Source: Eledone cirrhosa (Eukaryota). Taken from it: a DNA stretch of 64,000 bases. The DNA lies in NCBI GenBank assembly GCA_964016885.1, contig CAXHJY010000913.1, positions 1 to 64,000 of the forward strand, in the 5' to 3' direction. Position numbers and translations under genes: made by a program. The notes under the pieces are model-generated. The model saw only the letters and a list, made by a program, of their open reading frames with translations. It had not been told where the DNA came from and did no database searches. Every line of letters starts with the position of its first letter. Within the stretch, counting starts at the first letter, position 1. This document shows, in pieces, positions 6,155 to 56,774 of the stretch.

Positions 6155-6330
6155 GTGGATTGGCAGTATCGGTAGAGGGTCGGGCGCCATGCTTTGACGC
6201 GCTTTCGATTCTGAGTTCAATGCCGCCGAGGTTAACTTAGCCTTTCATCCTTACGGGGTCGATAAAATAAAGTACCAGTAACGTACTGGAATAACTGCTG
6301 GCCTTGTGCCAAAAGTAGAAACAATTATTA
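6155..6330 (+). mobile_element. tRNA-derived SINE
   Basis: Same family as 481-670. Confidence 0.9.
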
Positions 6331-8304: not shown

Positions 8305-8485
8305 TGGCAGTATCGGTAGAGGGTTGGACGCCATACTTTCTAGCATAGTTACGTCCCTTTACAGTCTGAGTTCAAATCCCGCCGAGGTTAACTTTGCCTT
8401 TCATCCTTACGGGGTCGATAAAATAAAGTACCAGTAATGTACTGGGTAATTGCTGGCATTGTGCCTAAAGTAGAAACAATTATTT
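8305..8485 (+). mobile_element. tRNA-derived SINE with target-site duplication ATTATTTCACATG
   Basis: Same family. Direct repeat at 8294-8306 and 8479-8491. Confidence 0.9.
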
Positions 8486-8900: not shown

Positions 8901-8934
<34 letters not shown>

Positions 8935-9081
8935 AGGAGTTGACGGACCGAGCATATTTATCAATGCCAGGACTGGTTGTATCTCAGCTTACTCAATAGG
9001 CAATGTAAGATACATTCCCAGAGAATACACATAGTTATTTGCCTCAACACAACACACGTAAAACGGGTGCCTATAATAGTT

Positions 9082-9192
9082 CCCGGACTCGAGTTTCGGC
9101 CACACTTAATGCAGCAGTAAGGTGCACTGTACCCTCCGTCTGCATATATTATGCAACAATGCATAATCGGCGTATGCAGCTTCATCAGCGGG
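9082..9192 (-). ncRNA. Type I hammerhead ribozyme, intact core, long branched stem II
   Basis: Minus strand reads CCCG-CUGAUGA-[about 85 nt stem II domain]-GAAAC-UCGA-GUC-CGGG. Stem I is CCCG/CGGG, stem III is the palindrome ACUCGAGU, and the cleavage triplet is GUC. Confidence 0.85.
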
Positions 9193-9546
9193 TATCGCCT
9201 AATCAATAACCAATCGATCGACAGAAACATAATAGCACCACTGACGATGTTGCAGATGTGCAACGAAAGAACTTTGTTAGACTATATATATGTGTTTGTG
9301 ACTATATTATATCTGTATTTTTGACCGTTGGTCAGTCAATGGTAACATTGAGGACCGAATAAATTAAATTAACCGATATAAAAGACACAGAAGCGAAAAC
9401 CAACGAAACAGTGAGTGTGTTCTGTTATTAATTCTGGCAATATTATTATACAAATATGACCCTCCCCAAGTATAACAATATTTGTTTCGACACACGATTT
9501 CATATCAAAAACCTCGCATAACTAATTCATCGCCCTTATATGTATG

Positions 9547-22159: not shown

Positions 22160-22802
22160 TAGACTTAATGATTAATTGATTAATTTAATTAGACAATTCT
22201 ATTGATTGGTTAATTGTTTATGTTTGTTTAATAACATGTAGTTGAGAGCTTTTATTCGGTTTGTGTAAAGGAATTTGACCGCCAAAACCGGGGGTTACCT
22301 CCCTTCGGAGAAACCACGTGACTACTAGCAGTGTTTACTACTAGTTCTTGCAACAGGCGGCGGCAGAACGAAAACTTGTTGACGAAGTAAATTCCACTGT
22401 TCTATCTTCCAAAGACCAATTAACTTGCAGGCCCCTGCAATTGGATTTTGTTGATTTCGGATATACAGAAACCTAGTGGAGATGTTATATAATATTATGT
22501 AATATATCCACGATGGTCTAGGTAACTGTCAAACATTTCCCAGAGTCGGGTTTTTCGTTGTTCTGGTCCTAGCGGCTCGCATTTCGGTTGCTGGCTTCAA
22601 TTTGCAGAGGTGTCTAAACGTAATGTTATAACTCTAAGGTAAAATTCTTTATTGAGTGCTTTTGGCTGCACTTCCCGACAGCATTCGTTAGCTTGCCCGC
22701 AACCAGAGCTTCGATTATGCTGCACTACCTTCTTGTATATATATATATATACAAGACTGGAATTGAACCATCAGCACAGTTGAGGTATGTCAGACATCAA
22801 TT

Positions 22803-22849
22803 TATTTTATCTGATGAGGACGTACTGATGAAACAGCTCAGTACCTCTG

Positions 22850-22856
<7 letters not shown>
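22803..22856 (+). ncRNA. Truncated hammerhead copy (3' strand of stem I replaced by (TA)n)
   Basis: Inverted copy of the 23095-23160 motif. It runs CUGAUGA...GAAAUA and then directly into (TA)n. Confidence 0.6.
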
Positions 22857-23094: not shown

Positions 23095-23160
23095 TATTTT
23101 ATTATACGTATTTCAGAGGTACTGAGCTGTTTCATCAGTACGTCCTCATCAGATAAAATA
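23095..23160 (-). ncRNA. Type I hammerhead ribozyme, intact core
   Basis: Minus strand reads UAUUUUAU-CUGAUGA-GGACGUACUGA(UGAAACAGC)UCAGUACCUCU-GAAA-UACGUA-UA-AUAAAAUA. Stem I is 8 bp and stem III is the palindrome AUACGUAU. Confidence 0.8.
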
Positions 23161-23269
23161 AATTGATGTCTGACATACCTCAACTGTGCTGATGGTTCAA
23201 TTCCAGTCTTGGCAGTGATTAGTTATGACAAAACTCAATATTTATATACCATAAGTAGTAACATGATAG

Positions 23270-55079: not shown

Positions 55080-55348
55080 ATGTCAGGGCATTCTTCTTGG
55101 AGAAGGCAACTTAGAAAACTGGGTTAACTCCGATATAAAACATGCGGCTCAGTAGTTACCAATGATGTTGATCTTTTCTTCTTTTCGGGTTATAGCTACT
55201 GTCGCTCAGAGAGTGGGATTGGCTCAGTGCACAGTCTTTCTTCACTTTAAAAATATCTTCACGCACAGGCATTGCACGATAGAATTAATAATTGTTAATA
55301 ATGGTATAACGTGCAATGGCCATATTCGATAACGAGGGGGCAGCCATC

Positions 55349-55350
<2 letters not shown>
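55080..55350 (+). mobile_element. Diverged shorter relative of the bipartite RTE derivative
   Basis: Shares GGAGAAGG, CCAATGATGTTGA, AGAGAGTGGGA, GCACAGGCATTGC and the 3' end GGCAGCCATCAT. Confidence 0.6.
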
Positions 55351-55389
<39 letters not shown>

Positions 55390-55440
55390 TTCCTACAGAT
55401 AAATTATTATACACTAACATAATATTCACACATACATTTA

Positions 55441-55506
<66 letters not shown>

Positions 55507-55550
55507 TATACATATATATACATATATATATATACATATATATATACATA

Positions 55551-56030
55551 TATTTCTCTGGGACACCGTAGAGTCTTACAATCTTCCACAATGACTCTCG
55601 ATGAACACTGTCGAAAGCTTTCCTGAAGTCAATGTAGTTGACAACAAGTGACTTGTGGAACTCCCGACACTGTTCAATGATATTTCGGAGAGTGAAGATC
55701 TGCTCTGAACAAGACCTTCCACTGCGGAAGCCAGCCTGTTCGTCTCGAAGATGACGATCTACTTCAGCCGGTTCAGGATGACTGTGCAGAATATCTTCCC
55801 TGGCACTGATAGCAAAGTGATCCCTCTCCAGTTGTTGCAGTCGCTGAGACAGCCCTTCTTCAGTAGTGGTACAATCACTCCATTTCGCCAGTCCTACGGC
55901 ACTCCTCTTCTTGCCAAATCACATTGCATAAATGGGTGAGCTGCTCCTCTATTACATCTATTACATCTTTGCTCCTCTATTACATCTTTGCTCTTGATTG
56001 GCAAACTGCTTCCACTTCATCCTCCAGTTA
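55551..56030 (-). mobile_element. RTE-type LINE reverse transcriptase fragment, inverted
   Basis: Minus strand translates as [67 protein letters not shown], with stops and frameshifts. Confidence 0.92.
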
Positions 56031-56083
56031 GCTCTCTATAACGTGCAATGGCCATACTCGATAACGAGGGGGCAGCCATCATG

Positions 56084-56151
<68 letters not shown>

Positions 56152-56194
56152 TTCCTACAGATAAATGATTATACACTAACATAATATTCACTCA

Positions 56195-56774
56195 TATTGA
56201 CGATGGGGATGCTGAGGTGGATGTGCGCACAAGGCTGGGAAAAGCAGCGGCGGTCTTCCAGCGACTCCGTCCGGTATGGTCCAGGTGTTCCATCGGCAAC
56301 GCCGTCAAACTCCGTGTTTACATGTCCATTGTAGTACCAACAGCGATATATGCCTGTGAGACATGGAAGAGTACGGAAAGTGTATGTAACAAGCTTGATG
56401 TATTCCACCGTCGTTGCATTCGGACCATATTGAAAATTTCATGGAGAGACCAAGTTAGCAACGAGGAAGTGATGAGGAGGTCAGGATTGGAGAAGTTAAG
56501 GGACATTGTCCGGAAAAGGGGGACGGCCGTTCGCGGGCCACATCCTTCGTTTGCCGGCAGATCGAGCTGCTCATATTGCCATGGATTGGGTACCAGAAGG
56601 TGGCAGGGGGGAACGGGGAAGACTACGAAAAACATGGCGGAGCACATTCAGGGAGGACTTGCAGGAGATGGGAATTACCTGGAGAGGTGCTAGTAGGGCC
56701 GCCAGTGACATGATCAAGTGGAGGAAGCTCGTCGCCCAATGTTCCACAAGGGACTGGAGGAACTAAGACTAAGA
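56195..56774 (+). mobile_element. RTE-type LINE 3' end
   Basis: DVRTRLGKAAAVF..KLRVYMSIVVPTAIYACETW..LDVFHRRCIRTILKISWRD..FAGHILRLP..RGRLRKTWR, with an (ACTAAG)2 tail. Confidence 0.92.

Follow-up and report, generated by a model that had tools for sequence, protein, structure and literature searches.

We identified a type I hammerhead motif with an oversized stem II on the minus strand of the window, by which we mean the whole 64,000-nucleotide stretch of Eledone cirrhosa DNA that was analysed (contig CAXHJY010000913.1, positions 1 to 64,000). At 9192-9082 the motif consists, in order, of CCCG, CUGAUGA, 84 nt, GAAA, the palindrome ACUCGAGU, GUC and CGGG. In the reading that we prefer and consider probable, the region is the 5'-truncated tail of a high-copy, non-coding repeat of about 845 bp that resembles Penelope-type elements (PLEs), and its hammerhead has a three-way-junction stem II and is likely to be dimer- or protein-dependent. 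That the host element is a non-autonomous PLE parasite is a part of this reading that we hold with high confidence. The features discussed below are as follows.

9189..9192, minus strand: 5' strand of stem I, CCCG; each of the four pairs of stem I is intact in 106-110 of 116 copies
9182..9188, minus strand: core CUGAUGA, the majority state in all three subfamilies
9098..9181, minus strand: stem II domain, 84 nt, with a predicted fold and lineage-level covariation
9180-9174 with 9105-9099, minus strand: basal helix of stem II, 7 bp, with A.C at its base
9167-9148, minus strand: hairpin 1 of stem II, AUUAUGCA-UUGU-UGCAUAAU, predicted fold
9145-9109, minus strand: hairpin 2 of stem II, longer than hairpin 1, which completes the predicted three-way junction
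9097-9094, minus strand: GAAA, the 3' half of the core
9094-9087, minus strand: palindromic stem III, ACUCGAGU; self-duplex of 8 bp, -10.7 kcal/mol
9088-9086, minus strand: GUC triplet, with C17 at 9086 and the predicted cut at 9086/9085
9085-9082, minus strand: 3' strand of stem I, CGGG, which doubles as the 5' arm of a local, competing hairpin at 9064..9085
8991..9024, minus strand: bulged hairpin of the ACUC...NN-GAGU type, ending 46 nt before the terminal GTCAAC; its first pair is broken in the window copy
8930..9226, minus strand: 5'-truncated copy, the last 297 bp of the non-coding Penelope-type repeat of about 845 bp; 93-95% matches end at the common 3' end
8902..8931, no strand: (TA)15, the microsatellite target, at the element's 3' end; TA runs lie at the 3' ends of most copies
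9223..9538, plus strand: 5'-truncated 3' end of a protein-coding PLE, separate from the repeat, 96% identical over 302 bp to locus L182

The identity of the host was established by a DNA search of the 3.0-Gb, microsatellite-rich genome. This search gave 3493 first-look candidates, and among the 40 that were scored, the 39 other than the window copy itself matched window positions 9226-8930 at 93-95%. Exact patterns spanning both core halves occurred at 550 and 818 genomic places, and the reversed controls at none. The copies have variable 5' ends and one fixed 3' end, which lies 156 nt past the hammerhead cut and is followed by (TA)n; the window copy thus consists of 141 nt before the cut and 156 nt after it. 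A TA run was found within 30 nt of the 3' end in 100 of 127 distinct copies and at the 5' end in 62 of them. The sequence-only reading had let a host segment begin right after (TA)n. This must be reversed, since the (TA)n tract at 8902-8931 marks the 3' end of the element in the sense of the ribozyme. The interval which that reading had drawn, 8930..9290, is accurate for 8930-9226, whereas 9227-9290 belongs to a different element.

In 21 of 30 loci picked on the 5' part of the unit, the unit is directly preceded by a 5'-truncated copy of the 3' end, and inverted arms were seen in L059, L212 and L213. The last of these contains a two-armed inverted insertion (L213:1726-1997), both arms of which start at the same base inside the palindromic stem III. 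In copies of the hammerhead repeat the sequence continues through the cut site, and in L211 and L086 it runs 93-119 nt beyond the 3' end into the start of the unit. PLEs are described as marked by partial tandems, by truncated copies in inverse orientation, by insertion into microsatellites and by a hammerhead close to the 3' end (PMC8557442), and the repeat shows what is expected of a non-autonomous PLE, namely 5' truncation, partial tandems forming pLTRs, inverted truncated arms and microsatellite targets. The unit contains no conserved long open reading frame and gave no match to two PLE protein families (best E 0.02), so that RT/EN coding capacity is absent. The bulged hairpin at 8991..9024 is a candidate reverse-transcriptase signal: its basal helices are predicted in all three subfamilies described below, with z from -2.4 to -3.5 in the A-type consensuses and -0.07 in B.

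In at least eight loci a short interspersed repeat, also present in the window at about 8305-8484 and about 6161-6329, occupies precisely the ATT-rich tandem junction. Those with this repeat at the unit start are L036, L041, L057, L058, L127, L141, L145 and L018, and they belong to more than one subfamily; the junction may be an insertion hot spot, or the master may be composite. Some 30 nt from the start of the unit (e.g. L024:950-1000), subfamilies A and B have GAGAGTAAG conserved; candidate roles for it are a splice donor like those of PLE 5' introns and one side of a weak hairpin spanning the tandem junction.

Next, we compared 116 near-full-length ribozyme regions, a set that excludes copies with short or partial matches as well as 20 short-gap loci. 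They fall into subfamilies A1 (48 copies), A2 (43) and B (20), with five singletons, and the mean divergence from the respective consensus is 4.6%, 3.8% and 7.5%. Subfamily B was reached via contigs from one study and then by a 21-nt pattern (49 places), and its copies, like many of A2, were picked by core-containing patterns; the 5' core half, which was unused for picking B, is intact in 14 of the 20 B copies. B and A are 70-75% identical over the unit. Across the ribozyme, A1 and B have 102 of 112 positions in common, as against 64-78% upstream, and they are also 88% identical in the 41 nt before the ribozyme and in part of the 3' region, so that the flanks are almost as conserved. B carries GUA instead of GUC, which is an allowed change. 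Among 53 similarity-picked copies the whole motif is intact in 21, as expected of decaying insertions.

The sequence-only reading had proposed canonical core nucleotides, a GUC triplet and a minus-strand cut at 9086/9085. The core nucleotides and the triplet were found at the claimed place, with the same predicted cut, and both core halves are matched genome-wide. The CUGANGA...GAAA core, an NUH triplet and the A15.1-U16.1 pair, which together define a hammerhead, are all present. The helices able to form are an open stem I of 4 bp, a basal stem II of 7 bp and a stem III of 2 bp in the monomer or 8 bp in the dimer. A short stem I, an extra nucleotide after A9 and a palindromic stem III, the features of minimal PLE hammerheads, are present as well, and the motif fits the consensus CUGANGAH-G...C-GAAAN-palindrome-NUH given in the text and supplement of PMC4209133. 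The description of the core as canonical holds for its nucleotides but not for position 10.1-11.1, where there is no clean G-C: A.C occurs in 42 of 48 A1 and 17 of 20 B copies, and A.A in 27 of 43 A2 copies. From the sequence, A.C can be read as an extra A plus a G-C pair with a slipped C. A lengthening of stem I by GAUA/UAUU was ruled out, since GAUA varies to GAAA and GAGA without compensation.

A descriptor combining a 4-bp stem I, the core and a palindromic stem III had three matches in the window, not itemised here, and none in each of 300 Markov simulations. An Rfam scan of the window returned no match at the gathering score and no hammerhead family among 22 weak matches with E up to 10, so that the motif is invisible to the standard family library; the models presumably do not accommodate an 84-nt stem II. 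Elsewhere in the window, at 22764-22852 (plus strand) and about 23111-23212 (minus strand), there is an inverted pair of another repeat, whose hammerhead core has a stem II of 31 nt; the copy at 23152 passes the full descriptor. Fragments of a reverse transcriptase frame, which we take to be LINE-like from its motifs, lie at 55295-56693 (minus strand), broken up by TA repeats.

Whether such a hammerhead cleaves depends on the fold that its RNA adopts. For the window copy, the active three-helix arrangement differs from the predicted minimum-energy fold. According to the predictions, the active fold lies above the minimum-energy fold by 3.6-11 kcal/mol in the monomer and by 2-19 kcal/mol in the dimer; two active monomers come out about 12-13 kcal/mol less stable than the active dimer. 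Hairpins formed locally on either side are predicted to capture the stem I strands, both in the window copy and in each of the three subfamily consensuses, with different pairs used in B. The A.C or A.A mismatch and these competing hairpins argue for weak or assisted activity, and the hammerhead is likely, as modelled, to cleave only as a dimer or with the help of a protein. The palindrome at 9094-9087 is indeed of the dimer-cleaving kind that had been proposed; however, this idea is inapplicable in cis to the window copy, which is a lone 5'-truncated remnant with no partner hammerhead and the only copy of the hammerhead repeat in the window. With neither an upstream unit nor a second hammerhead, and with a stem II that is predicted to fold more weakly than the consensus, the window copy is likely to be inert, that is, dead on arrival. 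For the family as a whole, we consider real cleavage somewhat more likely than its absence.

We also considered the possibility that the hammerhead is vestigial, with the core and stem II kept as a structure recognized by a PLE protein and with new copies made from uncut, linear tandem transcripts. The A.A mismatch at 10.1-11.1 in a successful subfamily and the predicted locking of both stem I strands in local hairpins are in line with this. So is the distribution of 5' ends, which do not pile up at the cut among the matches listed. Among those matches (100 of 165), 31 places, minus one internal deletion, gave 30 TA-flanked truncation points near the ribozyme; one of these lies exactly at the cut and 17 lie 4-12 nt upstream of it, inside stem III, a cluster that could be explained by TA microhomology or by a reverse-transcriptase stall before stem II. 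One additional arm, in L036, starts at the cut. Furthermore, no upstream partial copy extends beyond unit position 350 in the loci of both tandem surveys, hence no full multimer was seen. Two intact cores were found in only three of 40 pattern-picked loci (drawn from the 100 listed of 550 places, all on contig C1), which counts against the preferred reading; in the L142 type of natural two-hammerhead locus the cores are separated by 839 nt.

The ribozyme mutants of an Anolis PLE (PAc), whose hammerhead needs a protein, were reported to have no effect on in vitro insertion (PMC11167929), and this too would fit a vestigial motif. Against it, the core, the palindrome and an allowed triplet are retained in all lineages, across subfamilies that are about 70% identical overall. 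Moreover, further hammerhead families in this genome likewise have A.A or U.U mismatches where stem II begins; U.U exceptions are described as natural (PMC3088659; PMC7229834), and a U.U-based hammerhead cleaves in axolotl (PMC7229834). Weak cleavage, as dimers, is what has been published for PLE hammerheads (PMC4209133), and eight of nine Xenopus retrozyme dimers tested did not cleave in vitro according to a preprint (bioRxiv 10.64898/2026.07.22.740005). Lower private mutation rates in the core were dropped as evidence of selection, because many copies had been picked by core patterns. On balance, we regard a vestigial hammerhead as unlikely.

Returning to the preferred reading of an assisted, PLE-mobilized hammerhead, we propose the following course of events, for which PAc (PMC11167929) serves as the model. 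A tandem master copy would be transcribed, and two hammerheads would pair via the 8-nt palindrome while a protein, plausibly the RT/EN of a PLE, frees the stem I strands from the two local hairpins. Slow cleavage would then yield unit-length RNA, which may circularise, and leave much RNA uncut. Finally, the PLE enzyme would nick (TA)n and prime reverse transcription internally, always at the point 156 nt downstream of the cut, and this would produce both 5'-truncated copies and [partial]+[unit] tandems. The RNA copied in this way could be either a circle or an uncut linear tandem.

The mobilising element was not found among the loci and families examined. No PLE frame continuous with the unit was found in the 40 pattern-picked loci (the 5' end of L164 was not covered), and the two coding PLE families that were sampled have 3' ends unlike the unit. 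One coding family, reached through L071, was rejected as a partner, since its hammerhead is of the ordinary short-stem type and its sequence does not resemble the unit. A Pfam search with the PLE fragments gave no match. A very abundant coding PLE family (L095-L124; 17,222 first-look candidates) carries a standard minimal hammerhead several hundred bases past its open reading frame.

A coding PLE lies directly beside the repeat. The 9223..9538 element has longer copies in L182, L191 and L198 with RT- and GIY-YIG-like frames upstream, and from its motifs we assume it to be Nematis-like. It joins the hammerhead repeat head to head at 9223-9226 with a 4-nt AGAA overlap, and both outer ends of the fused pair run into (TA)n, so that the pair looks like one of the family's two-armed insertions in which one arm is foreign. 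The fused element carries a short-stem hammerhead-like motif of its own at about 9237-9278 (plus strand, opposite to that of the repeat), with an imperfect stem I; a clean version of this motif was seen in a sister family (L033, L113, L157, L211 and L212).

One could imagine a protein-gated switch made up of the branched stem II and the hairpins on its two flanks, in which the RNA would be locked and dimer cleavage would follow the docking of a helper PLE protein on the three-way junction domain, and that the fusion at 9223-9226 records a single event in which the RNAs of parasite and helper were both copied into the two nicked strands of one (TA)n. If so, RNA processing would be coupled to mobilisation, and the fusion would identify the helper. 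However, the head-to-head fusion was found in none of 29 other loci of the coding PLE and at no other junction of the loci surveyed. The fused neighbour is therefore unsupported as a helper, and a fusion met only in the window is a lead rather than evidence. We rate the gated switch as quite unlikely.

We then examined stem II, for which the sequence-only reading had suggested a large branched domain of about 85 nt with a UUGU hairpin. The domain measures 84 nt, and a second hairpin completes a predicted three-way junction. Folded alone, the 84 nt of the window copy reach -29.3 kcal/mol (z -1.89; 11 of 200 shuffles were equally good), and the opposite strand has a z of -0.65. The consensus stems II of the three subfamilies are predicted to adopt a common three-way junction with z of -6.4, -3.8 and -3.7; the window copy differs from the A1 consensus at five stem II positions, and its fold compares with -41.8 kcal/mol for that consensus. 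RNAalifold recovered the basal helix and hairpin 1, paired the core with stem III and drew hairpin 2 differently.

The pattern of changes among copies gave modest support to selection on the shape of this domain. By a hand tally, pairing was kept or restored in 11 of 14 lineage-level changes at paired sites, as against 58 of 195 private changes (binomial p 0.0002), and without the register-shift sites the former count is 8 of 11 (p 0.004). One basal pair is A-U, G-U or G-C in 56, 13 and 42 of 116 copies and never A.C, and its neighbour passes from C-G through C.U to A-U in a few A2 copies; in subfamily B, hairpin 2 is re-paired with a shifted bulge. In a 40-copy alignment the covariation score exceeded that of all 500 shuffles, whereas the number of double-changed pairs (5) was not above the shuffles (113 of 500). 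The check for covariation among homologues that had been suggested earlier thus succeeded in the pairing-preserving lineage changes but not in the double-change count, and all of the signal comes from a few, related lineages.

We also considered whether a fold-back insertion was simply fixed in a founder, with no selection on its shape. The small number of independent changes, the exclusively one-sided changes in hairpin 1 and the occurrence in this genome of several unrelated families with long, differently shaped stems II would all accord with such a neutral origin. On the other hand, the compensatory paths in the basal helix and the re-paired hairpin 2 of B are difficult to reconcile with it, and so are the short-stem versions. 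Four places with gaps of 4-34 nt and 16 with gaps of 35-65 nt were found, and among those listed 17 of the 20 were classified: one of the four and 15 of the 16 are individual deletions, each different, and one is a chimera with a neighbouring hammerhead. No amplified short-stem version, which might have been an ancestor, was present among these gap-pattern places. We thus regard a neutral stem II as improbable. It is likely that the big stem II was selected in master copies, and its most plausible role is to help the template RNA fold or bind a protein, rather than to take part in catalysis.

The unrelated hammerhead families just mentioned have stem II regions of 92-116 nt with differing shapes. 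With a palindromic stem III and stems II that are rod-like in some and branched in others, they were seen in L154:2875, L155 and L117 (105, 101 and 116 nt), L004 (minus strand, 1016; 95 nt) and L021 (minus strand, 628; 92 nt), and a further one, in L052:493, has 53 nt. The L154 family is young, with 98-99% identity among scored copies. Coding PLEs were rejected as the carriers of such oversized hammerheads for one long-stem family, in which 25 loci with 1.5-kb flanks showed no sense-strand PLE frame upstream.

Finally, we compared the repeat with known systems. The minimal hammerheads of metazoan PLEs (Cervera & de la Pena 2014, PMC4209133) are likewise type I, with a stem I of 4-5 bp, an extra nucleotide after A9, a palindromic stem III, a position near the 3' end of a PLE-structured repeat and a predicted dimer dependence. 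As described there, they have a stem II of 6-8 bp with a small loop, whereas ours has 84 nt with a predicted three-way junction, an A.C, A.A or slipped G-C at its base, and a non-coding host. Non-autonomous PLEs such as MRC1 of Chlamydomonas (Craig et al. 2021, PMC8557442) are also non-coding, with pLTRs, head-to-tail insertions and microsatellite targets. Their 3' sequence is common with an autonomous family, in contrast to the repeat described here, for which no such partner was found in the families sampled, and that account reports most Chlamys elements to be without a canonical hammerhead. PAc (Poseidon, Anolis; PMC11167929) is similar in its internal start of reverse transcription, which gives a fixed 3' end, in its AT-rich target and in a hammerhead that is inactive without protein, as assumed in the model used here. 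It is autonomous, however, and its open reading frame begins in stem II, whereas the large stem II domain of our repeat is non-coding.

Animal non-LTR retrozymes (Cervera & de la Pena 2020, PMC7229834; Li, Clavereau & Pollet 2026, bioRxiv 10.64898/2026.07.22.740005) are also non-coding, hammerhead-bearing head-to-tail repeats with many monomers, and in these two sources they are proposed to be non-autonomous PLE derivatives. Their units measure 170-400 nt in the former and 51-972 bp in the latter, compared with about 845 bp here, and the present repeat differs from them in having, among the loci examined, partial tandems only and no long arrays, and in having a PLE-type instead of a canonical hammerhead. 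A classical retrozyme, in which efficient cleavage and ligation give a circle of about 845 nt along which reverse transcription, always begun at one point, runs for more than one turn, would explain the [partial]+[unit] structure with its fixed 3' end, the copies that read through the cut and the extension of L211 and L086 past the 3' end, and its length would fall within the consensus lengths of up to 972 bp on record in the preprint, but we consider it very improbable given the absence of full dimers or longer arrays of the unit in the loci examined, the short stem I with no recognisable loop 1-loop 2 contact, unlike in canonical retrozyme hammerheads, and the unfavourable predicted fold.

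The class of element, a non-autonomous PLE or non-LTR retrozyme, is already known, and it is the oversized branched stem II that sets this variant apart; neither this hammerhead family nor a three-way-junction stem II in a PLE hammerhead is described in the literature searched, though repeat databases may hold one. As the class is known, the copy is probably a dead fragment and similar long-stem families exist in the same genome, the surprise is moderate. The case indicates that animal hammerheads are undercounted by family libraries and short-stem descriptors. Hammerheads of PLEs cleave poorly, may depend on a protein and, in the one system that has been reconstituted, could be dispensed with for insertion. 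A non-coding parasite with a core kept across diverged subfamilies, an apparently selected stem II domain and locking hairpins offers a substrate for the question of whether selection acts on cleavage or on the shape of the RNA.
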